Shown piece by piece: positions 16,414 through 43,218 of a stretch of DNA of 64,000 nucleotides. Where the stretch lies: assembly GCA_963733195.1 (NCBI GenBank), contig CAVTCR010000065.1:32001-96000 (forward strand), in the 5' to 3' direction. Position 1 is the first letter of the stretch. Each line of letters begins with the position of its first letter. Source of the stretch: an uncultured delta proteobacterium (lineage in GTDB: Bacteria > Desulfobacterota > Binatia > Bin18). The notes under the pieces were generated by a model. That model worked only from the letters and a program-made list of their open reading frames with translations. It was not told the origin of the DNA and did no database searches. The position numbers were made by a program, and so were the translations under genes.

Positions 16414-16444
16414 AGCTTCTGTGATCTTTGGATTGGTCTCTCAA

Positions 16445-20046: not shown

Positions 20047-20055
20047 AATCTGTGC

Positions 20056-21138: not shown

Positions 21139-21141
21139 CGA

Positions 21142-22314: not shown

Positions 22315-23019
22315 ATGCAGCTCGTCGTCCGAGATGTCTCTAAGCTTTTCAATGTGTCGGAAAAGACCATCTATCGATGGATCTCGCAGGGAGTGCTGCC
22401 TGCCTATCGTGTGAATGACCAGTATCGATTCAATCGGGCGGAACTCCTGGAGTGGGCGACCTCGCGGCGCATGAACGTCTCGCCAGACATTTTTGCCGAG
22501 CCAGAGAGTAGTGCGACACCCCTCCCTGGCTTGGTCGATGCCCTCCAAGCCGGTGGCATCTTTTACCGGATCGGCGGTACGGAGAAGGAGTCGGTCCTGC
22601 GTGCGGTGGTCGAGACTTTACGGCTGCCTGAAGAAGTCGATCGCGAGTTCTTGCTGCGAGTGCTGTTAGCCCGTGAAGCGTTAGAATCGACTGGCATCGG
22701 TGATGGGATTGCGATCCCCCACGTGCGCAATCCTGTCGTTCTGCATATAGCCCGGCCTATGATCACCTTATGTTTTCTCGATCATGCGGTCGATTTCGGT
22801 GCACTCGATGGGAAACCGGTCAGTATCGTCTTTTCCTTGATTAGTCCGACCGTCCGCGCCCATCTTCGCCTCTTGTCTCGGTTGTCATTTGCGCTGCAGG
22901 ATCCAGGTTTCAAGGCCGTGATCCATCGCCAGGGAGCCCGTGATGAGATCTTTGCGGAAGCGCACAGGGTCGAGGCGGGACTGAAATACGACCCGACAGC
23001 AACGGAGCGGAGAGGATAG
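22315..23019 (+). CDS. Excisionase-type HTH fused to PTS IIA (Ntr/Fru-like) domain
   Basis: DVSKLFNVSEKTIYRWI..LPAYRVNDQYRF; REALESTGIGDGIAIPH; AHLRLLSRLS. Confidence 0.92.
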   Translation: MQLVVRDVSKLFNVSEKTIYRWISQGVLPAYRVNDQYRFNRAELLEWATSRRMNVSPDIFAEPESSATPLPGLVDALQAGGIFYRIGGTEKESVLRAVVETLRLPEEVDREFLLRVLLAREALESTGIGDGIAIPHVRNPVVLHIARPMITLCFLDHAVDFGALDGKPVSIVFSLISPTVRAHLRLLSRLSFALQDPGFKAVIHRQGARDEIFAEAHRVEAGLKYDPTATERRG

Positions 23020-24993
23020 ATGACACTGGTGATCGTCGCCCTGATGGTCTTCGGCTTCGCTGGTGTTGGTTCCTTGTGTTGCGGAGCCTCGGCACGGTGG
23101 GCAACGATGGTGGGGGCCGGTGGTGCGATCGTCGGCAGTATACTGGGGCTCATCCCTGTCGTGCCCGTTCTGCTTGGCGCGTCTCCTCTTTTTTTGCACC
23201 TGCCGTGGGAGGTGCCGTATGGCTCCTTCATGATTGCGCTTGATGCGCTGTCTGCGTTTTTCTTGCTGCCGATTTTCATCCTGTCCGGTGTCGCCGCGCT
23301 CTATGGCAGTGAGTATCTCCAAATCTACTGGGAGCGGAAATCCCTCGGCTCCTCGTGGTTCTTCTTCAACCTTCTGGTCGCCAGTATGACGTTGGTGGTC
23401 ATTGCGCGGAATGGCGTCTTGTTTCTGGTGGCCTGGGAAGTGATGGCGCTCGCCTCTTTCTTCTTGGTGACATTTGAAGATGAACACGAACAGGTGCGCG
23501 AAGCTGGTTGGGTCTATCTCGTGGCGACCCATCTCGGCACGGCTTTTCTGCTCGTCCTCTTCGTTCTGCTCGGCCATGAGCATGGTTCGCTTGATTTCGA
23601 CCAGTTCACCGCATCCGCTGGCGCGGATGCGGTGTTTCTCCTTGCGGTGATTGGTTTTGGCGCTAAGGCGGGCTTTATGCCGCTCCATGTGTGGCTGCCA
23701 GAGGCGCATCCCGCGGCGCCGACCCACGTCTCTGCGTTGATGTCCGGTGTCATGATCAAGACGGGCATTTATGGGCTTGTCCGTATACTCACCTTCCTCG
23801 GACCACCGCCGTTGTGGTGGGGATGGGTGCTCTGCGGCATTGGTCTCTCATCGGGCGTCCTTGGTGTGCTGTACGCGCTAGCCCAACATGACCTCAAGCG
23901 TTTGCTGGCGTACCATAGCGTGGAAAACATCGGCATTATCGCGCTAGGTCTTGGGGTAGGGCTTATTGGTCTTAGCAGTGGATCTTCTACCCTGGCGGTG
24001 CTTGGGTTCGCCGGTGGATTGCTCCACGTGCTGAATCACGCCTTGTTTAAGGGACTCCTCTTCCTGGGCGCCGGCGCAGTTATGCATGGTGCAGGTACGC
24101 GGGAGATTGACCATCTCGGTGGTCTCCTCAAACGGATGCCCTGGACAGGGTTGTCCTTCCTTATCGGTGCGGTTGCCATCTCAGGATTGCCGCCGCTCAA
24201 CGGGTTCGTGAGCGAGTTGCTCATCTATGTCAGCGCCTTTCAGGGGGCAACCACACTTGAGAACACAGCGGCTGTTCCTGCGCTTGCAGTGATCGCGGGA
24301 CTCGCTCTTATTGGAGGTCTCGCTGCCGCCTGTTTTGCCAAAGCCTTTGGCATCGTCTTTCTTGGCGAGCCTCGCAGTGACCACGCCGCGCACGCCCACG
24401 AGGCTGGCATGGCTGTACGACTGTCGTTGTTGGTGCTCGCGGCGAGTTGTGTGCTGATTGGGCTCTGTGCGCCGTGGGTCGTAGAGGCGCTGGCTCCCGC
24501 GCTCACGAACGCAACCGGTCTGCCGGCAGACAGTGTGAATACCTTACTGATGTCTGTGCGCAGCACTTTCTCCGCGACTGTCTTAGCCAGCCTAGTGCTG
24601 CTGGTGTTGCTGGCGCTGCTGGCCAGCCTCCGTCACCGCTTGCTCGTGCGACGATCGGTAGAGGAGCACGTCACCTGGGATTGCGGGTATGCTCGTCCCA
24701 CCTCGCGTATGCAGTACACGGCGTCGTCTTTTGCCCAACCGTTGACGAGCCTGTTCCGTTTTTTGCTCCGCACGCGTTTCCATCACGTCATGATGCCAGG
24801 TCTGTTTCCGCGCGCGGCGTCCCTGACGACGGAGACGGAGGATCTCTCGCGCGTACGTCTGTACCAGCCGCTGTTCATCAGTATTGGGCGCGGTCTGTCC
24901 TCGTTGCGGTGGGTACAACATGGACAAGTACATCTGTACGTGTTGTACATCGCGCTCACCCTTCTCGTGCTGTTGGTGTGGAAATTAGGCTGA
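23020..24993 (+). CDS. hyfB: Ehr/hydrogenase-4 antiporter-like membrane subunit (HyfB-like)
   Basis: FLVAWEVM, KAGFMPLHVWLPEAHPAAP, KRLLAYHSVENIG, LNHALFKGLLF, TWDCGY..RMQYTASSF. Confidence 0.9.
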   Translation: MTLVIVALMVFGFAGVGSLCCGASARWATMVGAGGAIVGSILGLIPVVPVLLGASPLFLHLPWEVPYGSFMIALDALSAFFLLPIFILSGVAALYGSEYLQIYWERKSLGSSWFFFNLLVASMTLVVIARNGVLFLVAWEVMALASFFLVTFEDEHEQVREAGWVYLVATHLGTAFLLVLFVLLGHEHGSLDFDQFTASAGADAVFLLAVIGFGAKAGFMPLHVWLPEAHPAAPTHVSALMSGVMIKTGIYGLVRILTFLGPPPLWWGWVLCGIGLSSGVLGVLYALAQHDLKRLLAYHSVENIGIIALGLGVGLIGLSSGSSTLAVLGFAGGLLHVLNHALFKGLLFLGAGAVMHGAGTREIDHLGGLLKRMPWTGLSFLIGAVAISGLPPLNGFVSELLIYVSAFQGATTLENTAAVPALAVIAGLALIGGLAAACFAKAFGIVFLGEPRSDHAAHAHEAGMAVRLSLLVLAASCVLIGLCAPWVVEALAPALTNATGLPADSVNTLLMSVRSTFSATVLASLVLLVLLALLASLRHRLLVRRSVEEHVTWDCGYARPTSRMQYTASSFAQPLTSLFRFLLRTRFHHVMMPGLFPRAASLTTETEDLSRVRLYQPLFISIGRGLSSLRWVQHGQVHLYVLYIALTLLVLLVWKLG

Positions 24994-24997
24994 CGCC

Positions 24998-25909
24998 ATG
25001 TTAATTGCACGACTTCTCCTTCCACTGCTCGCCCTTGTCTTTGCTCCACTGTTGCTGGGAATTATCAGTCGCACGAAGGCGGTCGTTGCTGGCCGTGTAG
25101 GACAACCGCTCCTGCAACCGTATTACGATATATGGAAGCTCTTACAGAAAGGCGCGGTGTACAGCAGTACGACCACCTGGGTGTTCCGTGCGGGACCGAT
25201 GGTCGGCTTGAGCACCATTCTAGTGGCGCTGGCGCTTCTCCCATTCGGTGGGATCCCAGCGCTCCTTGCATTTCCTGGAGATCTCGTCTTGTTTGCCTAC
25301 CTGCTTGGGCTCATGCGCTTTTTCACTGTTCTGGCGGCGCTGGATACCGGCTCCAGTTTCGAGGGTATGGGGGCAAGCCGAGAAGTGACCTTCTCGGCAC
25401 TAGCTGAGCCTGCTCTCTTCTTAGGACTCGCGGCACTCGCACGACAGACCGGAACCTTTTCCCTGTCATCGATGTTTGAGAACGTCACGATCGAAAGCTG
25501 GGCGCAGGCTGGTCCGGCGTTCGTCTTGCTCGCGGCGGCATTCTTGATGGTGTTCTTGACCGAGAATGCGCGCATTCCGGTTGATGATCCAACCACACAT
25601 CTGGAACTCACTATGATCCACGAAGTGATGGTATTAGATCATAGCGGCCCGGACTTTGCCTTCATTCTGTACAGTAGCGCGTTGAAACTGTGGCTACTGG
25701 GAACACTCGTAGTGAGCATTCTTGTGCCTGTGCACCAGAGTGCGGTGTGGCTAAACATTGCCGCGGCGCTGGCAGGAATGGTCGGACTTGCCGTGCTCAC
25801 TGGTCTCATTGAGTCGGCAATGGCGCGGCTGCGACTGCTCCATGTCCCACAACTGCTGGTTGGCGCGAGTGTGCTTGCGATCTTAGCGCTCGTGCTGGTC
25901 TTGAGGTGA
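24998..25909 (+). CDS. hyfC: Ehr NuoH-like membrane subunit (HyfC-like)
   Basis: GRVGQPLLQPYYDIWKLLQK, GSSFEGMGASRE, ENARIPVDDPTTHLELTMIHEVM. Confidence 0.9.
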   Translation: MLIARLLLPLLALVFAPLLLGIISRTKAVVAGRVGQPLLQPYYDIWKLLQKGAVYSSTTTWVFRAGPMVGLSTILVALALLPFGGIPALLAFPGDLVLFAYLLGLMRFFTVLAALDTGSSFEGMGASREVTFSALAEPALFLGLAALARQTGTFSLSSMFENVTIESWAQAGPAFVLLAAAFLMVFLTENARIPVDDPTTHLELTMIHEVMVLDHSGPDFAFILYSSALKLWLLGTLVVSILVPVHQSAVWLNIAAALAGMVGLAVLTGLIESAMARLRLLHVPQLLVGASVLAILALVLVLR

Positions 25910-25913
25910 TCGG

Positions 25914-26558
25914 GTGCTACTCGGGATTGATGCAATTCTGGTCGTTGTTGTCTTGACAAACTTACTGGTGCTGGGCTCCAGTCGCTTAGCAACCTGCATC
26001 CGCAGCGTGGCCCTCCAGGGTGTCCTGCTCGGGGTGATGACGTTCGTGGCGCACGACAGCGCCTCTCCGCTGCGGACCACCATCTTGGCGATCGCGAGTA
26101 TCAGCATAAAGGGCATTGCCTTCCCGGCGTTGTTATTTCGTGCACTTCGCGAGGCGGAAATCCGGCGAGAGATTGAACCGTACGTGGGTTACAATCTCTC
26201 CATTCTCATTGGCTTGGCGATGTTGCTGTTCTCGCTGTGGCTGAGTGAGCGGCTGCCGTTGCCGCAGGTGCCTATCTCGTCCCTGATTGTTCCAGTTGCC
26301 CTGTGTACGAGTTTGATCGGCCTCTTCGTCATTATCAGCCGGAAAAAAGCGATCACCCAGGTCCTGGGCTATCTCGTGCTTGAGAATGGCATCTATGCCT
26401 TTGGCGTCGGTGTGGTGCCGCACTCTCCGCTGTTGGTCGAACTCGGTGTGCTCCTTGATGTTTTTGTCGCCGTTTTCGTTATGGGGATCACGATTTTCCA
26501 CATCAGCCGACAGTTCGACCACATCGATACCGACCGGATGGTACTCCTCAAGGATTGA
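25914..26558 (+). CDS. hyfE: Ehr membrane subunit (HyfE-like)
   Basis: ALQGVLL, RREIEPY, QVLGYLVLENGI, VELGVLLDVF. Confidence 0.88.
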   Translation: MLLGIDAILVVVVLTNLLVLGSSRLATCIRSVALQGVLLGVMTFVAHDSASPLRTTILAIASISIKGIAFPALLFRALREAEIRREIEPYVGYNLSILIGLAMLLFSLWLSERLPLPQVPISSLIVPVALCTSLIGLFVIISRKKAITQVLGYLVLENGIYAFGVGVVPHSPLLVELGVLLDVFVAVFVMGITIFHISRQFDHIDTDRMVLLKD

Positions 26559-26563
26559 CTGCT

Positions 26564-28036
26564 ATGTTGCTTGGGCTTTTACTTACTCCTACTGTCGCTG
26601 GCCTCCTCGCCTTCGCCATTCGCCCCGATGGGCTGCGCCGTGGGCTGCTCTTCATCACGGCGTTGTTGCACACCGGCCTTCTTATCGCGGCCTGGATGAC
26701 ACCGCCAGCACCACTGTTGGGTGGGTGGTTGTGGCTCGATGCCGTCGGTCGAGTGTTCCTTGGTATTACGAGTGTCTTGTTCTTCACGGTCGCAGTGTAC
26801 GGACTGTCCTATCTGCAACGCGAGCATCAAACGACCCATGCGGACTTTGAAGAAGGGTTTCTTTTTGTTGACGCACCAGAGGCGCGCTTCACTGGGTGTT
26901 TGCTGCTCTTCCTGGCAGCTATGACCTTAGTCACAGTGAGTCAACACTTCGGCATTCTCTGGGTTGCCATTGAAGCGACGACGCTGGCGAGCGCGCCGCT
27001 GATTTTCTTTCATCGCCATCATCGGTCGCTGGAGGCGACGTGGAAATATCTGCTGATCTGTTCTGTGGGGATCGCGCTGGCGCTGCTCGGCACCTTTTTT
27101 CTCGCCATCGCCGCGACGCAAGCTGACGGATCGATGTTACCTCTTGCCGTTCCTACGCTGGTACAGGAAGCTGCGCGGCTCCACGATACCTGGTTGGCAG
27201 CCGCGTTTTTGCTCTTGCTGGTCGGCTATGGCACCAAGATGGGTCTTGCGCCGCTACACACCTGGTTGCCAGACGCCCATAGTGAAGCACCCTCGCATGG
27301 TCTCGGCACTGCTCTCTGGCACGCTCTTGAACTGTGCCTTTCTGGGTCTCTTCCGGGTACAGCAGGTGTGCGCTGCTGCTGGCGCTGCTGCATTTGGTCA
27401 AGAACTCTTCATCGGATTTGGTCTACTGTCGATGGCTCGTCGCCGCCGTATTTCTCCAAGGACAAACGGACTATAAACGGTTACTGGCCTACTCAAGTGT
27501 GGAACATATGGGGATCTTGGCATTGGGTGTTGGTCTCGGCGGTAGTGGGACGTTTGGGGCGTTGCTGCACGCCGTTAATCACTCATTAACCAAAGCGATG
27601 CTCTTTCTGGTGGCAGGGAATATTTTGACAGCCTATAAGTCAAAGTCGACGGCTGACGTCCGTGGGGTACTGCGGGTATTACCCATCTCCGGCGTGTTGT
27701 GGGTCGCTGGGTTTCTCGCCATTACTGGCTCGCCTCCCTTCGGTCCATTCCTCAGCGAGTTCACCATCCTGAAAGCCGCATTGGATCAAGGACGAAATGG
27801 GGTCGCGTTCGTCTATCTGCTTCTCTTAGCTGCAATTTTCGTCGGTATGGCCTCGGCAGTGCTCGGGATGGCCCAGGGAACTCCTGGGACAACTGCGGTC
27901 ACGATCAGGTTACTCTGAGTCAGCGCTGACCATCGTGTCACCCGCTGTTTTGGGAACTCTCGTTCTTATTCTTGGACTCTATCTCCCACCACCGTTACGA
28001 GAGACCCTTGAAGAGGCGGCCCGAATGTTGAGGTAA
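26564..28036 (+). CDS. hyfF: Ehr antiporter-like subunit (HyfF-like), frameshifted
   Basis: WVAIEATTLAS, SLEATWKYLLICSVG, GYGTKMGLAPLHTWLPDAHSEAP, KRLLAYSSVEHMG, GSPPFGPFLSEF. Confidence 0.88.
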
Positions 28037-29558
28037 TGAGTATGGTATCCACACGTGAGATGCGGCCAAATGAACTCATTCCTCTGCGAGAGGTTCCACT
28101 CCTCACCATGAGTGAATTCCGTACAACAGTGCTTACTGGTGTGGCGGCTGGTGCCCGGCTGGCTGCGCTCTTCGGGCGACCGCTCGAACGTGACACGGTG
28201 CAACTCATGGCGGTGCTTGCGGACGGGCATACTGGCAGTTTGGCTGTGTTCGCAACGGTCGTAGGTGATGCCTATCCTGCGCTGACGCCAGAGTGTCCGC
28301 AGGCGCACTGGTTTGAACGGGAAATCGCCGAACAGTGGGGGGTGCGACCAGAAGGACATCCGTGGCTCAAACCGATCCGTTTTCATAGATCATATCGGCC
28401 TGGCATGAGGTCTGGCCTGAAAGGAGATGGAACGCAGTTACCAAGTGTCACCGATTTTTTCCAGGTGCAAGGTGAAGAGGTGCATGAAGTTGCGTCGGCC
28501 CGGTGCATGCTGGCATTATCGAACCCGGTCATTTTCGCTTTCAGTGTCACGGCGAGCAAGTGTTCCACCTGGAAATCTCCCTTGGCTATCAACATCGTGG
28601 GGTAGAACGGGTGCTGGTCGGTGGACCAGGAAAACGCACGATCCACCACATGGAAACCCTGGCGGGTGATACCTCGGTCGGTCATGCTACTGCATACTGC
28701 CAAGTTACTTGAGACATTTGCGCGATGCTCGTGTGCCCGCCCGCGCCCAAGCATTGCGAGGGATCGCGCTAGAACTGGAACGGCTCGCCAATCACACCGG
28801 TGATCTGGGCGCACTGGCGGGCGATGTTGGGTATCTGCCAACGGCTTCCTACTGTGGCCGCATTCGTGGCGACTTTCTCAATATGACGGCACTCATCTGT
28901 GGGAGTCGTTTTGGACGAGGCCTCATCCGACCAGGTGGGGTCGGGTTCGATGTCGACGGGCACGTGTCGACCAGTTACTGAGTCCGTCTGGAAAGCGCAT
29001 TCGATGATGTCACGAACGCCGTCAACTTGCTGTGGGACACGTCCTCTGTGCAGGCGCGGTTTGCGGAGACCGGGGTCATCACTCGTGACAACTGCGAGGC
29101 GTTTGGACTCGTGGGACCCGCAGCCCGAGCCTGTGGCGTGGAACGAGATGCGCGTCATGAATTCCCCGCGGGTATCTTTCAGTTTGCCCACATCCCGGTC
29201 TCCACGTGGCATAGTGGCGATGTCTTCGCCCGCGCCTATGTGCGGTGGTTGGAAATCCAGCGTTCCATTGCTTTTGTCGGTGAACAACTGTCGGCGCTAC
29301 CTGACGGACCGTGTCGGACTACGCCTGAGGGACTCGCTCCGGACCATCTTGTTGTCTCCTTGGTCGAAGGCTGGCGCGGGGAAATCTGCCATGTCGCAGG
29401 AACGGATAGCTGAGGGGCGTTTTGCCTTCTATAAAGTCATCGATCCCTCGTTTCACAATTGGATGGGGCTGGCGATGGCGCTGCGCAATCAGCAGATTTC
29501 GGATTTTCCGTTGTGTAACAAGAGTTTCAATCTATCCTATTGCGGACACGATTTATAA
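28036..29558 (+). CDS. hyfG: Ehr large subunit (NuoC+D/HyfG-like) lacking Ni-binding CxxC motifs; several frameshifts
   Basis: WFEREIAEQWG, HAGIIEPGHFRF, LGYQHRGVE, ETLAGDTSVGH in place of RxCGxC, LELERLANHTGD, VEGWRGE, SDFPLCNKSFNLSYCGHDL. Confidence 0.87.
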
Positions 29559-29570
29559 GGCACCGTTTTT

Positions 29571-30378
29571 ATGTTGAACCTCCTCCGTGCGCGCTCCAGC
29601 AAGGACATCGACACTATCGATATCCACGAGCACTCACGGGTACTGCCGGACCGGTTTCGTGGCCGGCCAGAGATCGATGCGACGCTGCGTGCTCAGGAGT
29701 GCCGCGTGTGTGTGGACGCCTGTCCGACTGACGCGATCGACACGAGACACACATGGATGGCGGCTGGATCTGGGGCGCTGTCTATTCTGCACGGACATGT
29801 GAAGAGGCGTGCCCGACCGACGCCATTCATTTCACCCAGGATCATCGACTGGGCACGAGAACACGGGATGATCCTGATTATGCGCACTTCTGCGCTCCCG
29901 CTGGCGCAAGCGCTTGAGGAGACAGACGCGTCGCCTGTTTGGTCGCTCGCTCAAGCTGCGCCAAGTCAGCGCTGGCGGCTGCAACGCCTGCGAGGCGGAT
30001 GTCAATGTGCTCAATACGGTGGTGTTCGATCTGGGGCGCTTCGGCATCCAGTTTGTGGCTTCTCCTCGGCACGCTGATGGATTGCTGATCACGGGACCCG
30101 TGACCGAAAATATGCGCCTCGCCCTGCAGAAGACGTACGATGCGGTTCCTGCGCCGAAGATCGTCATTGCGGTGGGTGCTTGCGCTATTTCCGGTGGTCC
30201 GTTTCGTGATCATCCGGAAGTCCACAACGGAGCTGACGCGGTGGTCCCGGTCGATCTGTACGTGCCCGGCTGTCCACCGCATCCAGTCACGATTCTCGAT
30301 GCGCTCTTACGACTACTGGGAAGAATACCCAACGAGCGTCTGCCCTTCGGCGCCGTAACGGGGAGAATCCATGAGTGA
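29571..30378 (+). CDS. hyfI: Ehr small subunit: ferredoxin domain fused to NuoB/HyfI-like domain, frameshifted
   Basis: CRVCVDACPTDAI, DLGRCLFCT; SAGGCNACEAD, SPRHADGLLITGPV, VGACAISGG, VPGCPPHP. Confidence 0.87.
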
Positions 30379-31431
30379 TGACGAAATGCGCGGTGCACAG
30401 AAACCTCGGCATAGTGACGTTCGATCAGTGAGCCGTTCCCGACCGGCGTACTCGCCTTCGGTGGGGCGGTCATTCGCTCGACCCTCATGCGTGAAGTGCT
30501 CGACCTTGTAGTGCGCATCGCGCCGTCAGACGCGAGCGTCTTGCTGACCGGGGAAAGCGGCGTAGGGAAAGAGGTGGTCGCGCGGGCGATTCATCAACTG
30601 AGTCCACGGGCGTCCCACGAGTTTGTCGCCATCAACTGCGCCTCGCTCTCGGGGGAAACCTTGGAGAACGAACTTTTCGGCCATGAAAAAGGAGCGTTTA
30701 CCAGCGCCGATGAGCGGAAGGTCGGCGTGTTTGAACTGGCCGACAGCGGCACGCTCTTTCTTGATGAAGTCAATGAGATGGGGGCTGCCTGTCAGGCAAA
30801 AGTGCTGCGAGCCCTAGAGCGGCGAGAATTTCGCCGCCTAGGCGGCACCCGGAAAATCAAAGTCGACGTGCGCCTCGTGACCGCCGCCAATGTGGACTTA
30901 CACGAGGCGGTGCGGACGCGCCGGTTTCGCGAAGATCTCTTCTATCGGCTGAACGTAGTGCATATCCACATTCCCCCGTTGCGCGAACGGCGGGAGGCAA
31001 TCGCGCTCATGACGCAGCAGTTTCTGCAGGAATTCTGCGAGAAATATCACAAGCGGGGACGTCACTTCACGGACGACGTCGTAGAACGCTTCGTCCAATA
31101 CCCCTGGCCAGGCAACGTGCGCGAGTTGCGCAATGTGATCGAGAGTCTGGTGCTCACCACGCGCGGGGAGCAGATTGGGCCCAAAGATCTGCCTGCGAAT
31201 ATTCGCGCGGTGGCGCCGTCGCGCGAAATCCACCTGCCGATTGGGGTGACGCTCCAAGATGCTGAGAAGGAAATTTTGCGCTGTTATCTTGAGATCTATC
31301 CCACGCGGAAGGAAGTGGCGCGGGTGCTCAATATTGGCCTGCGCACTTTGCACGCCAAGATCAAAGCCTATGGCCTTCCTCTCCGCCGCGCTGGTAACGA
31401 AGCATCCTCACGTGCCAAATCGGCACGTTGA
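30371..31431 (+). CDS. Sigma54 enhancer-binding protein without a sensory domain (AAA+ plus HTH); start 30371 via frameshift, or 30487
   Basis: [63 protein letters not shown]; no room for a receiver/GAF domain after hyfI. Confidence 0.9.
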
Positions 31432-31511
31432 ACGGCTCCTATTTCTACAAAACGTGCCAAATCGGCATGTTTTTACAAGTACTGAAAGGCAAACCTGCCA
31501 TTTTGGCACAT
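31410..31511. promoter_or_regulatory. Three TGCC-N5-GGCA palindromes (putative activator binding sites)
   Basis: acgtgccaaatcggcacgt, acgtgccaaatcggcatgt, acctgccattttggcacat; TGCC at 31413, 31455, 31496. Confidence 0.7.
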
Positions 31512-31594
31512 TGTTGGCCTCAGCTCAGCGGCAGCGCCGATAGCGAGCGGCTAACCGAATAAACTTTTCGCAGCATTGTCATATCCTGACCGCA

Positions 31595-31610
31595 CGGCAT
31601 TTCTTTTGCT
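31595..31610 (+). promoter_or_regulatory. Putative sigma54 -24/-12 promoter
   Basis: CGGCATTTCTTTTGCT (GG-N10-GC), about 90 bp downstream of the palindromes. Confidence 0.6.
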
Positions 31611-31966
31611 CTACCCATTACCCATGAGTGAGGACGGCGACGAATCGCATCGGTATCGTGGCAAGGAGGGGGCTCAGCGTCGGTTCCTGTTCTCCTGTAA
31701 TGAGTGACGAACGCCGAAAACACGCTGAGAGGCATCCCTGGACTGCATCGCCATACTGATAGTAGAGGCAGAAGGGATGAGGGTACGATGCCGATCGGAT
31801 TCTACTGTGGGTGCTGTCCTCACAAGATGGGAGCAGGTGGGTACAGCTAGTTCGCTCGGTCTCCCTCGCGGTACCTGCCACCCCCTACCCACTCGTGCAG
31901 GAGAGACAACGCCCCGTCTTCTCTGGGACAGGGTGCCAGGAGGAGAGGGTCCGACGGCAGGTGAAG

Positions 31967-32721
31967 ATGCGCATTGCAGAAACGAGTGACCATGCCACGA
32001 ACATCCGTGCGACAGGAGCCATCACTGCTGCGCCCATGACACCGGGCGGCGCGTGGGCCGACGACGGGCCGGCGTTGCTGCGCCTCTGGCCATGTGGCTC
32101 GACCTCACGCTGCTCAATCGCACGGGACTCACCCAGGTGTTGGAGCGCTATGCGCTGCCGCTGGAGGTGACCACGTACTTTCAGCTCAAGTTTCAATCAC
32201 CAAAAGTGATTGCGGTGGATCGTGCCGTGTTTCTGGTCACCGCTGTCGTTGCACCGTCGCCGCGCCAGCTCTTTGTTCTCCATGAGCTGAAGCTCTGTGT
32301 CACGCCGACCCTGGTTGCCGGGCTCTATGCGCATGTCCTACGTACCCAGTCGCCGATCGGGTCGATTCTCAGTCAACCTGTAGACTTGTCATCAGGAGGG
32401 GTGGCTCGATTTGTGTGGGAGGTGCTGGACGGCGTCGTGGCGTCATACGAGGCTGTGGCCACAACGATCTCCAACCATGGACTAGCGCGGAAAGGAACCG
32501 AGGACCTGGGCGTGTGGCAGCAACGCGTAGCGGCATTGGTGGAGGTGATCGGGCAGCAACAGGTGTTTCTCTACAACGTGGCGCGCGCAGGACGTAAGGT
32601 TGGCGTAGATGCACAGCAGGAGAAGCGCGCAGCGTTGGACACCCGTCTTGAGCGGCTGATGGGGATCATCAGTGATGTGAGGCAAACAGAACGGGATATG
32701 CTCCCGCGTTTCGACACGTGA
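31967..32721 (+). CDS. CorA/ZntB-like cytoplasmic domain without transmembrane helices; start uncertain
   Basis: MWLDL..LERYALP..QSPKVIAVDRAVFLV..ELKLCV..FVWEVLDGVVASY then helical stalk; stops with no GMN motif or TM helices. Confidence 0.55.
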
Positions 32722-32998
32722 AATCAACCAACGAGGAGCACACCAGTGAAAGCGTGGGCGGATGCGGTAGCGCGGTTGGACATCCAATGTACCGATTGCC
32801 GATCCGGATTGTGCGGAGCGAATCGCTTGTCTATGACGAGAAGCACCATATCGAACAGCATGTGACGCAGTACGCGTGAGGTCGTTGCGCGTGCGTAAAC
32901 GGGCACCACGCAAGCATGCTTACGGGTGGTGCGAGAGCGGTGGAGAGCGCGATCACGAAGAAAACACGGTTGTCATAAGCGGCAACGCAAGAGAGGGA

Positions 32999-33473
32999 GT
33001 GGAATCGTTATTGCAGCAGGTGGTGTACGTCAAAGAGTTGCTCGAACATGCGTTCGAGGAGTTTGCGCTGAAAGCGCATCATCACCGTGTCACCCTCCGT
33101 TTTATCGCTGGCTGAGACCTTGCCGACCATCATCGTGGATCGCATCCTTCTTATCCGGACACTCCACGTTGCTGATTGATCGCGCATTGGAGGTGACGGC
33201 AGTGGGTGGCGTCGTCGTCCGCGCGAAACGCACAGCGGGTGAGGTCGTGATTGGAGTTGATGATGGTGGGCCGTGGGTGTCGCCACGCGATGTCCCACGG
33301 CTCTTTCTCCCGGGCTCGGCAGAAACAGACCTGCTCGCGGCGGCTGACCTGGCGCGGCAGTTAGGTGGCAGGCTGAGTGCGTCAGGCGGACGGAAACAAC
33401 TCGGCCTACGGGTCAGGCTGCTCGTGCCAACTGCTGCCCGCGCGTGGCGCAGCGCCGGCACGAGAGAGCGTAG
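32999..33473 (+). CDS. Degenerate histidine-kinase-like ATPase (HATPase_c) domain, interrupted
   Basis: Joined frames: VYVKELLEHAFEEF..DLPTIIVDRILLIRTLHVLIDRALEVTAVGGVVV..VIGVDDGGPWVS..RLFLP..LARQLGGRL; N-box Asn replaced by Arg. Confidence 0.6.
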
Positions 33474-33546
33474 GCGATGCCGAAACGCAAGGACAATAAG
33501 TCGCCACGGTGACGCGCAGGCGAGAGACATGACCGCAAGAATGACC

Positions 33547-33735
33547 ATGCACTGGCTGGATGTGCTTTGCCAACATTGGGACCAGCTCTCTGAAGAGACC
33601 CGAGCGCAGGTCCAGCAGTATGACTTTTGGTGTCTGATAGCCGAGCAGCAGAGCAGGAACGAAGTCCCGGACCTCGCGCGTCAGCTTGAGGACACATTGC
33701 AACGACACGCCCGGACATTCGGGTGGAAACCATAA
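33547..33735 (+). CDS. 62-aa Trp-motif microprotein, paralog 1
   Basis: MHWLDVLCQHWDQLSEETRAQV...FGWKP; 25/62 gapless identity with 37416-37604. Confidence 0.75.
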   Translation: MHWLDVLCQHWDQLSEETRAQVQQYDFWCLIAEQQSRNEVPDLARQLEDTLQRHARTFGWKP

Positions 33736-33742
33736 GGACACA

Positions 33743-34027
33743 ATGATGGACAGAGTCGTACGCTTTCCGGCGCAGGGACGCAGCCGCGCCACACTATCAA
33801 CGTCCCAACACGAGCAACTGCGGCTCAAAGACTCTGCAAACCTGCTTCAGGCCCTCACCATTGTCACAGAGGCCCGCGACGCGTTCTTGACGTTTGCCGA
33901 AGGGACGCAGAAGCCAGCGGTCTTCGCAACGTTTATTCATCTGGCCCATGCCATGGACCAGGCCGGGGCAGAGATTTACAGGATGCTGCATCAGGAGGGA
34001 GATAACGATCCTCCGTGTTGTGCGTGA
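33743..34027 (+). CDS. Small helical hypothetical protein
   Basis: TAAGGA RBS, 7 bp after paralog 1 stop; amphipathic helices including FIHLAHAMDQAGAEI. Confidence 0.55.
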   Translation: MMDRVVRFPAQGRSRATLSTSQHEQLRLKDSANLLQALTIVTEARDAFLTFAEGTQKPAVFATFIHLAHAMDQAGAEIYRMLHQEGDNDPPCCA

Positions 34028-34146
34028 GGAGAGAGCTGCATGCATCTCTGTATCTATCGTTCGCCGTCATGTCTGATGTGGGTGTCTACATTCATGGCCG
34101 TCACGGGCCGCAGTACTGAGTACACAACGGCAAGCTCCGACCAATG

Positions 34147-34341
34147 TGCCAGAATGGCAGTTTTTTAGCAGAAAACAGTACCAAAGTGCAGAAGTGGCAG
34201 TACGTGTTGAGGTTGCTATTCATAACATGCTGAAAATGTCACTGTCGGCAGGATACGCAACCCGCGTAGCCACCGTTGCGCACGGCATTTGTTGATGCGG
34301 CAGGATCTCCGCCCGCTGCTGCCACTGGCACGGTGTATGCT
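34147..34341 (+). promoter_or_regulatory. Second palindrome pair plus sigma54 promoter
   Basis: TGCCagaatGGCA (34147), TGCAgaagtGGCA (34187); TGGCACGGTGTATGCT at 34326-34341. Confidence 0.65.
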
Positions 34342-34477
34342 CTCGTTACTGAATATGGCGAGGACGTATGGTAATCCACTGATCAGATCTGACCCAGGAT
34401 GCGGCGACAGGACGTACATGAGTGAACACGAACACAGAACATCGACACCTCGGATATGGAAAAGCATGGAGAAGCTC

Positions 34478-35844
34478 ATGAATAACAATCAGGGAGATCG
34501 GGTGATCAAACAGATCCGCCTTTCGCTGCCGAACGCGACTGGGGCGCTCTCGACGGTCACCACAGCCGTGAGTGGTGCCGGGGGGATCGTCGGCGAGGTG
34601 CGCACCCTGCACAACCATGCACAGCGGCGCGTGGTGCAACTGAACATCCTTGCTGACAAGCGAGCAACAATGGGCGGCAATTAGGCAGGCACTCATGAGG
34701 CTGGAGCACGTACAGGTTGACGCGGAAACCGATCCGATGCTCGATGCGCATCGCGGTGGTCTCATTGGCGTCCAGTCTATCGTCCCGTTTCGTAGTGAAG
34801 AGGACTTCACTACATTCTACACCTCGGGCGCGATAAGCACGGCACGAACGATTGCCCAGTCGCCGCACTTGGTGCCGTGGTACACCGCGATTCCATGCTT
34901 GGTGGCGCTAGTCACCAATGGTGAGAATGTCCCGCACCTCGGGGAGATTGATCCACGTGCGATGATGCCGCTGTTGGAAGGCAAAGCCGTGCTTCTTAAT
35001 ACCATGCTCATGTTGTCGGGGGTGCCGATTCTGCTGGACACACGAGATCCGCACGAGATCGTACGCACGCTTGCCCATATTGCACCGACCTTTGCGGCGA
35101 TCTCCATGGAAGGGATCGCCGCGCCGGCCTGTTTAGCGGTGGAGGAGGCGCTCGTGGCACAGTTACGGCAACCGGTCTGGCACGATGATCAGCATGGGGT
35201 AGCCGTGGTTGTCCTTGCGGCACTGCTCACGCTGGCGAAGCACTCGCAACAGCCACACACACGGATACACGTAGGCGTGGTAGGCTTGGGTGCTTCTGGC
35301 ATTGGCATTGCCAGGCTGCTGCGCGTGGCAGGCGTCCGACAGAGTATGGGGCACTGATCCGCACGAAGACGGGTGCCAACGTTTGACGGAGCTTGGCGGC
35401 AATGCCACCACCGTAGAGGAGATCATGCGCGAAGCGGACGTGATAGTTGTCACCAGCGGGGCTCCGGGTTTCCTCCGAGCCGGAGCTGGTGCGGAGAGGG
35501 CAAACGCTCATTGCCCTCTCTTCTTTCACCCCGAGCTCGCAGAGGCAGAGTGCGCTGCCGAGGCACAGTACATCGCAGATGACCAGCGGCTCATCAGTGC
35601 ACTCGTCTTTCCGGGACTCATACGCGGCGCTCTTGATGCCCGCAGTACCCGCATCACGGATGCGATGAAAATTGCGGCGGCAGTGGCGATTACCCATCAC
35701 AGCCGAGGCGCTGATCTCCTGCCCTCGGTGTTGGACCCGGCTCTGCATCTCCACGTGGCACACGCTGTCCAGGACTGCGCCGCACGAGAACAAATAGAGC
35801 CAGACCGTAGTCCGACAACTGGCCTGCCTCTGGAGAAGGAGTAA
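34478..35844 (+). CDS. Divergent ACT-domain malic-enzyme homolog, frameshifted
   Basis: N-terminal ACT-like segment; HRGGLI, FYTSG, MPLLEGKA, PVWHDDQHG, GLGASGIGIA, FPGLIRGALD. Confidence 0.78.
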
Positions 35845-35848
35845 CACC

Positions 35849-36007
35849 ATGTCACACGATGACGACTGGCTCAAACAACTGCTGAGGCAATGGACGACGC
35901 TCTCTCTGGATGTGCGCGAGCAACTGCACCTGTCTATGCAGCTTGCTCTGGGCGACCGTAAAAATCAGTGTCGCTTGGAGCAGAAACGGAAACTGGCTCG
36001 CGGATAG
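35849..36007 (+). CDS. 52-aa Trp-motif microprotein, more distant paralog (not in ORF track)
   Basis: AAGGAG RBS; MSHDDDWLKQLLRQWTTLSLDVREQL shares the W..L...W..LS pattern. Confidence 0.6.
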   Translation: MSHDDDWLKQLLRQWTTLSLDVREQLHLSMQLALGDRKNQCRLEQKRKLARG

Positions 36008-36128
36008 CCCAACGCCTGTTCACTGATGCAGCAAATAGCAATGCCCACTGCTGAACAAGCAAGCGTAAGACGACAACATTAGTGCGTAAGAGAGGAAACT
36101 CGTTAGTGCCCGTACGACGGAGGGATAT

Positions 36129-36461
36129 ATGGCACACGATCTGCGTGTGATCTTGACAAGGACGGAAAGGCGGACCGCACTGATTGGGAAATGGTTTTGC
36201 GGGGTGCGATTTACCAAGGTGGATCTGGCGGAAGCGGTCTTCAATAAGGCCGACCTGGAAGGGACGACCTTTGTCCTGACGGATTTATATGGCGCAGATT
36301 TCTGTCACACCAATCTGCGCCAGGCAACATTCTGCTTATGTGACCTACATGGTGTGGACTTGACCGATGCGTGTTTGGCAGGAACGACGTTTCGTGGCTG
36401 CCTCGGTCTCTCGCCAGCTACCTGTGCCTACATTCATGCGCACGGCGGCCTGGTACTGTAA
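36129..36461 (+). CDS. Pentapeptide-repeat protein
   Basis: VRFTK VDLAE AVFNK ADLEG TTFVL TDLYG ADFCH TNLRQ ATFCL CDLHG VDLTD ACLAG; GAGGG RBS. Confidence 0.88.
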   Translation: MAHDLRVILTRTERRTALIGKWFCGVRFTKVDLAEAVFNKADLEGTTFVLTDLYGADFCHTNLRQATFCLCDLHGVDLTDACLAGTTFRGCLGLSPATCAYIHAHGGLVL

Positions 36462-36532
36462 GACCCAGGGAGAAGGGGGTACCCGGGAGAGGATTGGCTG
36501 TACGTCCGCTCAGAGAAAGGAAACCCGTTGCT

Positions 36533-37313
36533 ATGACTCCAGCACTTTTGCAACCCACGATGGTTCAGGATAACGACGGTGGAGACGCAGCTCACTGCCC
36601 TGGTGCAGGGGAGACATAACGTCCATCGTTTGTTGCAACATACCTGCCTGTTGGAACGGCGGCTGCGGGGCGGTGGAGAGCCGACCGATCTGCTACTGCT
36701 TGTGCCAGACATAAAGTTTGCGGTTGAAGAACTCCAAACACTCCTCCAATTTGCTGAGCAAGCAGTATTGCCAGCGCGTCGTAGCGGAGCGCGTACGGCA
36801 GATAAACGAGAACCCCATCCTCCTACTCGGCGACGGCGTGTCGAACTTGGGCCATTGCTCACTCGCTGTGTTTCGGCAGCACGACAGCGATTGCACGGCA
36901 ACGGCGCGTCCGTGCTCTTCCACATTGCTGTTGACCTTCCAGTCTTGACTACCAATCCGGAGACAGTGAGGCACATCCTTTCTTTGCTGTTCGAGCACGC
37001 AATCACGGCGAGTGGAAGAGAAGAGCGAGAAGTGCACGTGCAGTGGACCAACGAGACGTTAGTCGTCGACATCGACGACGCTGGACGAGGGCTCGCTCAA
37101 GAGACCTATACGAGGACTGCGTCAGTTGGTCGAGCAATTAGACGGGACGTTCAGAGTCTCCCACGAACTCGGACAACGGTCGCGTGTAGAACTCACCTTC
37201 GCTCCAGCTGCCCCGAGCGGAAGTGCGGTGGGTCCGGTGGTTCCCCTCCACCGGAAGGGACACGGATGCTGAACAAGAGAGTGGTTATTAATTGGACTGC
37301 TCCTGCCTGGTAG
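36533..37313 (+). CDS. Degenerate histidine kinase (HisKA-like helices plus HATPase_c), frameshifted at both ends
   Basis: RVELGPLLTRCVSAA..VDLPVLTTNPETVRHILSLLFEHAI..LVVDIDDAGRGL; shifted frame QLVEQLDGTFRVSHELGQRSRVELTF; N-box Asn absent. Confidence 0.65.
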
Positions 37314-37415
37314 TGGAGATATGGAACAGCGCAACGGGCCGAAGCCGCGGTCCAAAAAATGGAAGAGCGGGTTACTAAACGGATGAGGAAATAGCCGTAA
37401 GCAAGAGGAACCGCT

Positions 37416-37604
37416 ATGACGTGGTTTGATGTGCTCCTTGAGCACTGGTCGGATCTGTCTGTTGAGGTGCAAAAGAAAGTGCACGAGTATCACGAGTTGC
37501 ACGCTGCGGCGGGGCAGTTCGGCAGATGGTTTCTACCGGAGCGAGTGTGGCAGCTTGAGCAGGAATTACAAGTGGAAGCCCGCAAACTCGGCTGGCGCTG
37601 GTAA
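37416..37604 (+). CDS. 62-aa Trp-motif microprotein, paralog 2
   Basis: GAGGA RBS; MTWFDVLLEHWSDLSVEVQKKV...LGWRW. Confidence 0.78.
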   Translation: MTWFDVLLEHWSDLSVEVQKKVHEYHELHAAAGQFGRWFLPERVWQLEQELQVEARKLGWRW

Positions 37605-37626: not shown

Positions 37627-37986
37627 GTGATGTTACCAAGAAGGCGTCCAGAGAAGGTCAAGGCTATAAACGACGAGGAAGCACTATTGTTTGAGATCAA
37701 ACCGGTTGCCATGTTTGTGGATCGGGGGACGGTCGTGTCGCGGGAATTTATGTCTCACGATGGCCGTGTGATAGCCGGTTATCGTGCGCGTCCAGGCGTG
37801 GTTGGATTTCCCGCTTGGACGCGTTTAGGTGACTTGGTGACTGGACATCGCGAGACGGGCCGTCAGTGGTTCTCTACAGGGGTAGCCGCTTACCTCTGGG
37901 TTTTGTCGCGCGTGAACGGCTGGCACGAATTGTCACCGGTTCCTACGGCTATCTCCGGTGGCACACAATCAACGTGGCAGAAGTAG
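37627..37986 (+). CDS. Hypothetical protein
   Basis: 119 aa ORF co-oriented with the cluster; no recognised motif. Confidence 0.4.
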   Translation: MMLPRRRPEKVKAINDEEALLFEIKPVAMFVDRGTVVSREFMSHDGRVIAGYRARPGVVGFPAWTRLGDLVTGHRETGRQWFSTGVAAYLWVLSRVNGWHELSPVPTAISGGTQSTWQK

Positions 37987-38109: not shown

Positions 38110-38937
38110 ATGACTGAAACATTACCCCGCCTGTTGACGCTACAAGCCTGTGACCAGCGCATCCGAGAGGCGTTGCATACCCTCGAGAGCCTACGAGCCT
38201 CGCTGGCTGTCCTAACAGAGCAAGCAGTTGCCAACGCGCAAGATATGCAAGCCTGCCACGATACAATCCTGGAGGCCACACAGGCGCGTGACGCGCTCGC
38301 CACGCAGCGTGATCAGATCAAAGATCAATTGCGAGAGAAAAAGCGTAGCGAGCATCGTCGCGGTGCTGGAAAGGTGAAAGAGTTCATCCAACAAGAGATT
38401 GCGCTTCTGGACGCGCAGAAGGCTGCCATAGAGGAGGAACTGCGTACCGTGGAGGTGCAGATCACTGAAGACAGCGCCACACTCCACCAGGCTGAAGAAG
38501 CTGCTCCGACGCAGGCGGAGGAACGGCAACGTACTACCGCTGCACTGCTCGATCAGATTGCCGCTACACAAGAAGTGCTCCGCGCGGCGCAAGAGGAGCG
38601 TAGCGCACTGACCTCAGGCATCATGCCGTTCGTTCTCTATAAATATGAGCGGATCTCCGCCCATCGCGGTGGCGTCGCCGTGGTGGCGATCGCACATGAG
38701 ACGTGTCAAGGGTGTCACCTGCACGTGCCAGCGCACCTCTGTCTTGAACTGCAGAAAACCCTCAGACTCGCGTTTTGTCCCAATTGTCATCGTATTGTCT
38801 TTGTGGCGAACGAGGCTCCGATTGCATCGCCGCCCTCCCACCGACCTGCCGCGACCAAACGCCGCACGCCCCGTCCACAACGCTACACGCGGGCGGCAGC
38901 GTGCAACAGCGAAACGATCCCAGCGACAAGTAGCTGA
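38110..38937 (+). CDS. Coiled-coil C4 zinc-ribbon protein (DUF164; HP0958/FlgZ, CT398/CdsZ family)
   Basis: LLTLQACDQRI, long coiled coil, YERI..GGVAVVAI..CQGCHLHVP..FCPNCHRIVF; AAGGAG RBS. Confidence 0.85.
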   Translation: MTETLPRLLTLQACDQRIREALHTLESLRASLAVLTEQAVANAQDMQACHDTILEATQARDALATQRDQIKDQLREKKRSEHRRGAGKVKEFIQQEIALLDAQKAAIEEELRTVEVQITEDSATLHQAEEAAPTQAEERQRTTAALLDQIAATQEVLRAAQEERSALTSGIMPFVLYKYERISAHRGGVAVVAIAHETCQGCHLHVPAHLCLELQKTLRLAFCPNCHRIVFVANEAPIASPPSHRPAATKRRTPRPQRYTRAAACNSETIPATSS

Positions 38938-41578: not shown

Positions 41579-41962
41579 TCATGTTGCTAGAAACCTTCCC
41601 AGCCACACGCCCAGGATGACTCCTACAAGTCCCAGAACAACACTACCTGTAATGTTCAGCAGTGCCGCGACAACACTCTGGTCTTGCGCGAGCCGCAACG
41701 TTTCGTAGCTGAAAGTCGAGAAAGTAGTATAAGCTCCAAGGAATCCAACAGCAAAGAAGAGGTGGTAATGAGGAGAGGCCAGTGGTCGAGTATTGAGGCT
41801 CGCCACAAGCAGTCCTAAGAGAAAGCTGCCACTGATGTTAATGACAAAAGTGCCCCAGGGAAATTGCGCGCCCCACAGTTGGGTGAGCCAGCCTCCCACC
41901 AGGTAACGGACATTGGCACCAAGAAAACCGCCGATGCCAATCATTATATATTCCATGCTCAT
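41579..41962 (-). CDS. crcB: Fluoride channel Fluc
   Basis: GGFLGANVRY, FPWGTFVINISGSF, GFLGAYTTFSTF. Confidence 0.95.
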   Translation of the reverse strand: MSMEYIMIGIGGFLGANVRYLVGGWLTQLWGAQFPWGTFVINISGSFLLGLLVASLNTRPLASPHYHLFFAVGFLGAYTTFSTFSYETLRLAQDQSVVAALLNITGSVVLGLVGVILGVWLGRFLAT

Positions 41963-42022
41963 GTGTCATACTGCAGCCGTCCGTTATGGTCTACGTTGTT
42001 CTCTGTGGAGAGAAGAGGGGGA

Positions 42023-42073
42023 TTGACACTTTGTCGTATAGCTTTAGTCTTTAATAGGAATTATTCCTATTAA
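42023..42073 (+). promoter_or_regulatory. Sigma70-type promoter with Fur/PerR-type operator
   Basis: TTGACA (42023) and TAGTCT (42045); perfect inverted repeat TTAATAGGAA-tta-TTCCTATTAA at 42051-42073 abutting the RBS. Confidence 0.7.
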
Positions 42074-42086
42074 GGAGGATGTGGAT

Positions 42087-42512
42087 ATGACGAAGTCTTT
42101 GCAAGGTACAAAGACGCACGACAACCTTAAACACGCCTTTGCGGGCGAATCCCAGGCGAACCGCCGATACCTCTATTTTGCCCGCCGCGCTGACATCGAA
42201 GGGTATCCTGATGTTGGTGGATTGTTCCGCGATACGTCAGAAGCGGAAACCGGTCATGCCTTTGGCCATCTCGATTTCCTGAAAGAGGTGGGCGACCCGG
42301 CAACTGGTAAGCCGATTGGCGACACGGAGAAGAACCTGCAAGCGGCTGAGGCCGGCGAAACCTACGAGTATACGGAAATGTATCCAGGGTTTGCGAAAAC
42401 TGCGCGGGACGAAGGTTTTGTCGAAGTCGCCGAATGGTTTGAGACCTTGGCCCGTGCGGAGAAATCGCACGCAGGTCGATTCAGAAAAGGCTTGGATGGC
42501 TTAAAGGCGTAG
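42087..42512 (+). CDS. Short rubrerythrin without rubredoxin domain
   Basis: [40 protein letters not shown]. Confidence 0.95.
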
Positions 42513-42526
42513 TGGATGGTGATATG

Positions 42527-42561
42527 TTCGTAGAGACGCCCTGGCAGGGCGTCTCTACGAA
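42527..42561. repeat. GTAG-type REP hairpin
   Basis: ttcgtagagacgccctg-g-cagggcgtctctacgaa. Confidence 0.8.
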
Positions 42562-42599
42562 AGATCATATTCCGAGAGGACAATGATAAGGAGCCGTTG

Positions 42600-43175
42600 A
42601 TGCAGAAGGTGACGCTAGACGAGATTATAGGCTCTGAGCGCTATGAGAAAATCCGTGATGACTTTCGTCATCGCATCATCGAGTTAAAGAAACACCGACG
42701 CCTCTCAATTGGTGATCGTATTACTGTGGTATTTGAGAATCATGAGACTGTGCTGTTCCAGATTCAAGAGATGCTGCGTGCAGAACGCATCACCGACATT
42801 GATAAGATTCGCTTTGAAGTCGACACCTATAACGAACTCATTCCTGGCGACGGTGAGCTATCAACAACATTGCTGATTGAAATCACTGAACAAGAACAGA
42901 TCCGGCCAGAACTGGTGAAACTGATCGGTCTCGACAAAGCCGTGTCTTTACAGATCGGTCAACGCTTCACAGTTCCAGGGGTTTTTGAAGGTGGACGAAG
43001 TACAGAAGACAACCTTAGTGCAGTTCAATACGTACGTTTTCCCTTGTCGCCTGAGGCGCGTGCGGCGTTTTGCGATGAGAAAGAAGAGGTGCGATTGGTC
43101 GTTATGCACCCCAATTACCAAGCTCAGGCGCAGTTGCCGACGGCAACACGACAATCCTTAGCGGCTGAGCTATAA
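42600..43175 (+). CDS. DUF3501 family protein
   Basis: [41 protein letters not shown]; next to rubrerythrin. Confidence 0.88.
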
Positions 43176-43218
43176 AGGCAAGCGAAGAGAACGTACACTG
43201 GTTGCGAAAAGGTCGTGT

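Follow-up and report, generated by a model that had tools for sequence, protein, structure and literature searches.

What are three very small open reading frames doing beside degenerate kinase genes in the genome of an uncultured bacterium, and do they form a unit with these genes? The question is raised by a stretch of 64,000 nucleotides, referred to here as the window, from contig CAVTCR010000065.1 (assembly GCA_963733195.1, positions 32,001 to 96,000 of the forward strand) of an uncultured member of the Binatia; positions below are those of the window. A sequence-only reading had pointed to a family of three tryptophan-motif microproteins at 33547-33735, 37416-37604, and 35849-36007, called W1, W2, and W3 here, and had placed the first two after a pseudo-kinase. 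All three frames were present at these coordinates with the translations given then. Judged by their sequences, they represent an undescribed microprotein family that is a member of none of the families tested, and its loci lie in an island of genes associated with a σ54-dependent activator.

33529..33735, + strand: W1 microprotein; 68 aa from the ATG at 33529, 62 aa from 33547
37416..37604, + strand: W2 microprotein; 62 aa, with a Shine-Dalgarno-like GAGGA upstream
35849..36007, + strand: W3, a half-homologue with the N-terminal WxxxLxxxWxxL part and a C-terminus of its own; 52 aa here, 68 aa in relatives

The W family

The gapless alignment of W1 and W2 proposed earlier held at 25 of 61 identical residues, where 25 of 62 had been counted, with a BLAST E-value of 2e-13 and a score that 0 of 5000 shuffles reached. 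By genome-wide tblastn, the pair matched at E 2e-9 and no further W copy was found in this genome. The pairwise similarity of W3 was weaker, its score being reached by 2 and 45 of 5000 shuffles; its N-terminal pattern was recovered in a profile-profile match of 95% probability (E 1.8e-8), chiefly over the N-terminal half, and W3 possesses orthologues of its own. The true start of W1 is most likely the ATG at 33529, giving 68 aa, since this upstream codon is the one conserved in close relatives: it is retained in loci L027, L069, and L070 (L numbers denote loci, G numbers genomes), and the codon equivalent to 33547 is CTC/ATA in L069/L070. The open frame 32926-33735 of the window joins W1 to the C-terminal piece of the preceding HATPase gene. 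A stop codon lies between the two in relatives, and the read-through is therefore local to this genome.

Among 25 gap-free W homologues, none contained an in-frame stop, and both other forward frames were stopped in all 25. Codon-position differences were highest at the third position (0.47 vs. 0.30 and 0.25 at the others). The ratio of nonsynonymous to synonymous substitution rates (dN/dS) was estimated pairwise by the Nei-Gojobori method from non-independent pairs, with saturated or near-identical pairs excluded, and gave medians of 0.20 for W2-type sequences (51 of 55 pairs), 0.19 for W1-type (29 of 36), 0.28 for Wc (16 of 21), and 0.28 for W3 (13 of 15). For comparison, the medians were 0.09 for the activator, 0.20 and 0.24 for the kinase-like genes HATP_A and HK_B, and 0.14-0.28 for other island genes. 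The selection suspected earlier was thus borne out by a median near 0.2 and frames open in 25/25 homologues, and these patterns mark the W family as genuine coding sequence under selection.

Across 51 sequences, the invariant positions were W3, L7, W11, L14, and A55, all hydrophobic, while Y25, L47, E48, L51, and G59 were conserved in more than 90%. No invariant His, Cys, Asp, or catalytic or metal-binding residue was found among them; His10 occurred in 26/51 and His29 in 22/51, so a conserved phospho-accepting histidine of the DHp or HPt kind is lacking. The AlphaFold2 model, with a predicted local distance difference test score (pLDDT) of 82 and a predicted template modeling score (pTM) of 0.61, shows a short Trp-bearing helix followed by a two-helix hairpin (helices 3-9, 16-35, and 41-57). 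W1, W2, and W3 are accordingly predicted by modeling to be helical-hairpin small proteins.

The earlier inability to recognize the family persisted through profile, sequence, and fold searches. No match above cut-off was obtained for 58 W members in Pfam, NCBIfam, or PHROGs; the best sub-threshold E-values (0.0011, 0.0019, and 0.014, respectively) were scattered, with at most 6 of 58 members per family. PADLOC returned nothing for the four W proteins, and the best E-value of a W profile against PDB sequences was 0.64. Foldseek with the W monomer against PDB and viral structures gave nothing at E < 0.001, and a wide PDB fold search gave generic hairpins only (best Z 6.5, root-mean-square deviation (rmsd) 2.1, 56 residues aligned). 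Likewise, Foldseek found nothing with a model of a tandem W-W fusion, whose pTM of 0.51 left the mutual orientation of the domains unfixed and whose best fold match (Z 7.6) covered one half only; the ESM Atlas held no usable match for W2 or the fusion. The WXG100 protein EsxA is a hairpin of about 100 aa with a central W-x-G, unlike the 62-aa W unit with its N-terminal Trp pair and C-terminal GW, and its Foldseek rows had E over 6 and rmsd 9.7. Likenesses to GvpK, DUF3106, and the HMG-box were dropped for want of Pfam support. Of the checks suggested by the sequence-only reading, the profile search gave homologues, and the structural search gave no specific fold match. A literature search, with subscription papers and supplements outside its scope, found no description of the island or of the W family.

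Within its own Binatia family, W occurred in 6 of 55 genomes, which represent 3 of 10 genera. It was absent from 346 sampled genomes of other families in the class, and in a phylum sample of 401 genomes it occurred in its own genome only (0/400 others). As far as these samples reach, the family is lineage-restricted, confined to one bacterial family. A full HMMER scan of 1.84 billion representative proteins gave 18 matches, of which two long ones were rejected as unrelated repeat proteins with a shared WxxLS motif. A word-indexed search gave 44 W clusters, 18 of them two-domain W-W fusions of 122-132 aa, and a search among longer proteins gave a single match, a read-through of an HK_B fragment into W created by a deletion. 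The assignment of the family to the Binatia follows a protein identical to the G070 copy, whose source labels it 'Candidatus Binatia bacterium'; other records are labeled more loosely. Two partial Klebsiella loci in the GTDB scan (E 1e-4) were taken as chance. Each locus carries two to four W paralogues, and the pair that is fused elsewhere consists of separate adjoining W genes in G003. Natural W-W fusions of 132 aa were seen at L057:155-553, L051:1050-1448, L056:137-535, and others.

A σ54 island behind the Ehr operon

Of 39 loci mapped, 38 bear W, and in all 38 it lies amid the same gene set, so that nearness to kinase-like and σ54 genes, on which the sequence-only reading had staked its case, is a general property of the homologues. 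All nine W loci that reach far enough upstream contain the σ54 activator, and in eight of them it is preceded by ehrS; in L061 another gene precedes it, and the island has no Ehr directly upstream. The usual order is an Ehr (energy-converting-hydrogenase-related) operon, a sensor-less σ54 activator, one or more σ54 promoters with two enhancer boxes, and then mostly dead-looking paralogues (kinase, HATPase, CorA, malic enzyme, receiver), together with a lipoprotein and a CdsZ-like protein and, in some loci, PII. The window holds the following elements.

22315..30378, + strand: Ehr operon with hyfB/C/E/F-like genes, EhrL, and EhrS; hyfF, ehrL, and ehrS frameshifted here
30487..31431, + strand: σ54-dependent activator with AAA+ and HTH, no N-terminal sensor domain
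31448..31612, + strand: promoter P1, two palindromic TGC-N-GC enhancer-like boxes and a σ54 -24/-12 core, GG at 31596
32053..32721, + strand: CorA-like soluble domain; the Pfam match in relatives stops before the membrane part
32749..32880, + strand: frameshifted remnant of a CxxC orphan (~70 aa), read by eye; intact at this place in L069 and L070
32993..33432, + strand: HATP_A, a lone HATPase_c; in pieces across three frames here, whole in relatives (~150 aa)
33746..34027, + strand: 93-aa orphan gene, conserved in the island
34181..34343, + strand: promoter P2, a second copy of the P1 architecture, GG at 34327
34478..35844, + strand: ACT and malic-enzyme-like gene, metal-ligand ED changed to EG; three frames here
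36129..36461, + strand: pentapeptide-repeat protein
36579..37272, + strand: HK_B, helical N-terminal part and HATPase; one frameshift here
37317..37394, + strand: 3' remnant (last 25 codons) of an Lpp/OprI-type Ala-zipper lipoprotein; whole in relatives
37627..37986, + strand: 'FEIKP' small orphan gene, conserved in the island
38110..38937, + strand: CdsZ/FlgZ-like protein, coiled coil and C4 zinc ribbon

The activator retains its Walker A and B motifs, GAFTSA loop, and arginine finger. In the G020 orthologue, the Sigma54_activat domain starts at residue 33 of 354, which places it among bacterial enhancer-binding proteins (bEBPs) without a regulatory domain. All 12 of the 12 aligned intergenic regions contained a GG-N10-GC core preceded, at 141-144 and 99-102 bp, by two palindromic boxes, and a promoter profile run over the 6.9-Mb genome gave two forward sites, both in the window (P1 and P2). 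Since boxes and cores occur together in all 12 regions and nowhere else in the genome, the activator likely drives the island promoters; rpoN is present in this genome. An early promoter candidate at 31504 was dropped, the conserved core sitting at 31596, and a DNA search with P2 found no relative, the sequence being too diverged for BLAST.

The neighbors that the sequence-only reading had called degenerate are conserved pseudo-kinases throughout the family, intact in relatives and frameshifted in this genome. HATP_A has the N-box Asn replaced by Arg and has lost the G2 box; in HK_B, the N-box Asn is His, the ATP lid and G2 are deleted, and there is no HisKA match. Its phospho-accepting His site we take to be Gln, from a by-eye alignment to an H-box consensus. 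HK_B holds HATPase_c only and no PAS, and the activator AAA+ and HTH only and no GAF. The inactivating substitutions are shared across genera at synonymous distances (dS) near or above 1 with dN/dS of about 0.2. Because the same substitutions are fixed across genera in genes under selection, the loss of catalytic residues is, on this comparative evidence, old and maintained, not mere local debris.

The island itself is more surprising than W: pseudo-enzymes of unrelated families that are under purifying selection stand behind one promoter type and appear to make up most of a conserved σ54 regulon, attached in uncultured Binatia to the respiratory-type complex Ehr. Since activator, enhancer boxes, and promoters are located to the base, the circuit is open to direct testing. 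Its reach is limited by the narrow range, and this genome probably carries a broken copy.

Additional genes in the islands of relatives encode receiver-like, bifunctional-nuclease-like, and PII proteins (PII in L026, L040, L055, and L056), the Ala-zipper lipoprotein, and the CdsZ-like protein. Other conserved orphans lie at L040:7673-10852, L055:1462-2825, and L061:6425-6658 (FEIKP, VMLVF, CxxC, KRQLL, and a membrane-anchored small protein); none of these had a Pfam or NCBIfam match, and the VMLVF orphan appeared STAS-like by eye. Also in these regions are receivers, some of which lack the acceptor Asp, and a bifunctional-nuclease domain of divergent sequence.

The Ehr operon encodes group-4-hydrogenase-like subunits, and compared to HycE the G020 EhrL orthologue has lost both NiFe CxxC motifs (cgicgfah vs. 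lagdtsvgh, ldpcy vs. fnlsy), as in the Ehr complexes of Geobacter and comammox Nitrospira, which have the same subunits. In the available text of PMC10284858 and PMC7894505, the function of these complexes is described as unknown, with a possible link to formate, and a downstream σ54 activator or island is not described. Within the family, Ehr operons without an island behind them occur in G010, G022, G024, and, as a second operon, in G011, and most of the checked operons that lack the activator lack the island too. Downstream of the island-free operon of G010 (L097), a cluster resembling a soluble di-iron monooxygenase was seen by eye.

Possible roles of W: adaptor, kinase partner, or scaffold

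Our tentatively favored reading is that W would act as a non-enzymatic adaptor or feedback regulator, likely a dimer, in a phosphorylation-free partner switch that helps to turn the activator off or on. Encoded at the end of the Ehr operon and having no sensory domain, the activator would, by analogy with PspF and HrpRS, work as soon as it is produced unless restrained in trans, and it would likely drive both island promoters. The dead HK_B, HATP_A, CorA soluble domain, ACT-malic protein, and receivers, together with PII and the CdsZ-like protein, may function in ligand sensing or as scaffolds, in the manner of NifL and GlnK. W homo- or heterodimers, suggested by the natural W-W fusions, would then link the island sensors to the activator or to one another.

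Several known systems work in a comparable manner. In Azotobacter vinelandii, according to PMC12998190, NifL is a kinase-dead histidine kinase homologue that blocks NifA together with GlnK, by binding and not by phosphorylation, as would be the case here. The island resembles this system in that kinase homologues without catalytic residues (HK_B and HATP_A) accompany a σ54 activator, with PII in several loci. In contrast, its activator lacks GAF, HK_B lacks PAS and has lost lid and G2, and two pseudo-kinases plus many dead domains are present; NifL systems have no W equivalent. Likewise, PMC7057263 describes bEBPs without a cis-regulatory domain that are controlled in trans by a small protein, PspF by PspA and HrpS by HrpV. 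Unlike these, W is 62 aa and multi-copy, and the island activator follows the Ehr operon; no PspA/IM30 or HrpV match was found for W or the scanned island orphans. Should the proposed regulation hold, the circuit would resemble NifL/NifA/GlnK or PspF/PspA in its working while lacking the features by which membership of either is recognized. The zinc-ribbon gene of the island matches FlgZ/HP0958 and CdsZ/CT398 (E 2e-17, below cut-off), and FlgZ protects RpoN in Helicobacter (PMC3372290). It differs from them as a divergent paralogue within a σ54-driven island, and it bears on the neighbor of W, not on W.

Several observations weigh against an adaptor or feedback role. At least one island does without W: in G013, the order is activator, CorA, HK_B, zinc-ribbon gene with no W on the contig, and its metagenome-assembled genome (88% complete, in a class of 84-88%) gave no W match. 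Many deletions and gene fusions differ among loci and would be poorly tolerated by a tightly wired circuit, two to four paralogues per locus are unusual for a feedback inhibitor, and neither the sequence searches nor the fold searches linked W to PspA, HrpV, or Sda. The lipoprotein, the commonest upstream neighbor, could point to an envelope or assembly role.

The repeated unit of kinase-like gene plus microprotein that had been proposed stood in part: of 51 W domains, 13 have a pseudo-kinase immediately upstream and 38 do not. In this position the lipoprotein stood in 17 cases and another W in 11, one of these being a gene split by a frameshift; HATP_A and the FEIKP orphan accounted for 9 cases each and HK_B for 4, with 1 unknown; seven near-duplicate loci (L042, L044, L053, L054, L058, L061, L066) were omitted from this tally. 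In the window, W1 does lie just downstream of the HATPase gene, as claimed for both copies, and W2 is separated from HK_B by the lipoprotein remnant at 37317-37394. The order HK_B, HATP_A, lipoprotein, W is found in L049, L050, and L060. Two promoters are present in the window, in G011, and in G020, with HATP_A and W1 behind the first and HK_B, lipoprotein, and W2 behind the second. These gene orders make it likely that the 'twice after a pseudo-kinase' pattern arose when promoter and cassette were duplicated and the two copies then lost genes reciprocally. In the nucleotide tree, W1 and W2 form one clade (ultrafast bootstrap 100) nested among lipoprotein-linked copies. The protein tree, to the detriment of this history, leaves it undecided: approximately unbiased (AU) tests reject neither of two groupings (p 0.40 and 0.31), and the duplication thus stays likely rather than demonstrated.

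The same tally bears on whether W is a dedicated partner of the pseudo-kinases, either an Sda-like or DHp-mimicking hairpin on the HK_B helices or a piece completing the lone HATPase, which we consider unlikely. W is present in all four family genomes with HATP_A, which has no dimerization helices of its own, and lipoprotein-type loci usually have a kinase-like gene one gene further upstream. Sda, the Bacillus subtilis kinase inhibitor, is a small protein tied to histidine-kinase folds and, according to PMC10730256, a 46-aa helical hairpin that binds a DHp; for W, a hairpin is predicted by the model, and fold searches matched it to generic hairpins only. Set against these points are the 38 of 51 W domains without a kinase-like gene directly before them, G003 and G070, which have W without HATP_A, and G013, which has HK_B without W. 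Similarity between the W and HK_B profiles was absent (probability 1%), there is no conserved His, and no Sda match occurred among the 58 members. An additional N-terminal helix with Trp sets W apart from Sda, and the island contains no active kinase whose autophosphorylation could be blocked. A co-fold of the activator AAA domain, HATP_A, and W1 (G011 copies, with alignments) gave an interface score (ipSAE) of 0.00 in two runs without controls and is evidence neither way.

Apart from regulation, the island could encode a multi-protein assembly or stress-induced scaffold for the Ehr complex or the envelope, with W as repeated structural or chaperone subunits; we hold this rather improbable, if somewhat less so than a dedicated kinase partner. 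Such a scaffold would comprise the lipoprotein, coiled-coil, pentapeptide, and CorA-domain proteins, and it would suit the multiple W paralogues and tandem fusions, the lipoprotein upstream of 17/51 W domains, and the position of the island genes as activator outputs, after ehrS in 8/9 long loci. Nevertheless, four Ehr operons (those of G010, G022, and G024 and the second of G011) do without an island, L061 has an island without Ehr directly upstream, gene content is highly variable, and many members are derivatives of signaling domains (histidine kinase, receiver, PII).

The adaptor reading could be extended, speculatively and with little probability as a whole, to an island acting as a phosphorylation-free signaling hub of a new kind. 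There, a sensor-less activator switched on together with the orphan Ehr complex would transcribe the genes for about ten dead domains, recruited as ligand sensors from unrelated enzymes and transporters (kinase, HATPase, CorA, malic enzyme, receivers, and bifunctional nuclease), and W dimers would be interchangeable adaptors connecting each sensor to the activator. If true, this would give a handle on the signal to which Ehr complexes respond.

State of this copy and other genes of the window

In this genome, the Ehr operon and island contain 12 frame changes (hand count) in about 4,684 codons, compared to 4 in 14,235 codons of 35 genes elsewhere with a poor row and a duplicate excluded (binomial p 3e-5), a rate about nine times higher. 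Frames are interrupted in both kinase-like genes, in the malic-like gene, and in the genes for three Ehr subunits; they remain open in W and in the activator core. Among the sequencing runs, two low-share DNA sets had no coverage at the frameshifts, and no RNA holder was listed. The counts make local decay more likely than genome-wide assembly error, and the island locus is likely decaying in this genome. The frame changes, the deletions and fusions at many loci, and the patchy presence (6/55 genomes) would also fit a formerly functional operon slowly decaying across the whole lineage, with W as passengers whose dN/dS records past selection. We regard this as the least probable of the readings, given that different genera share the same 'dead' substitutions at a dS of about 1 or more and a dN/dS of about 0.2, that W frames are open in 25/25 homologues, and that promoter boxes are conserved in 12/12 regions.

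Recurrent in-frame deletions fuse island genes at L027:1384-2289, L022 (ACT-malic), L093:898-1449, and P0035, the products including HK_B with the zinc-ribbon protein (ZnR), the ACT-malic tail, and HK_B with W. The island therefore seems deletion-prone.

With respect to the remaining genes, the first of the Ehr operon (22315-23019) presumably encodes, judging by its motif, an HTH and PTS-IIA-like protein and is a candidate for controlling the expression of Ehr and hence of the island activator. A second σ54 activator at 17848-19192 (+) has a long N-terminal region, GAF-like by eye, and a frameshift near its C-terminus. Convergent with it, at 19450-21537 (-), are genes that we take to encode a GNAT-like protein, a hydrolase resembling PHA synthase, and a small protein with a coiled coil. 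Positions 14207-16783 presumably hold a transposase-like fragment, a Uma2-like fragment, and two adjoining HTH antitoxin-like genes, and motifs at 41579-43662 suggest a cluster that we assume to comprise fluoride-channel-like, rubrerythrin-like, and Fur-like genes.

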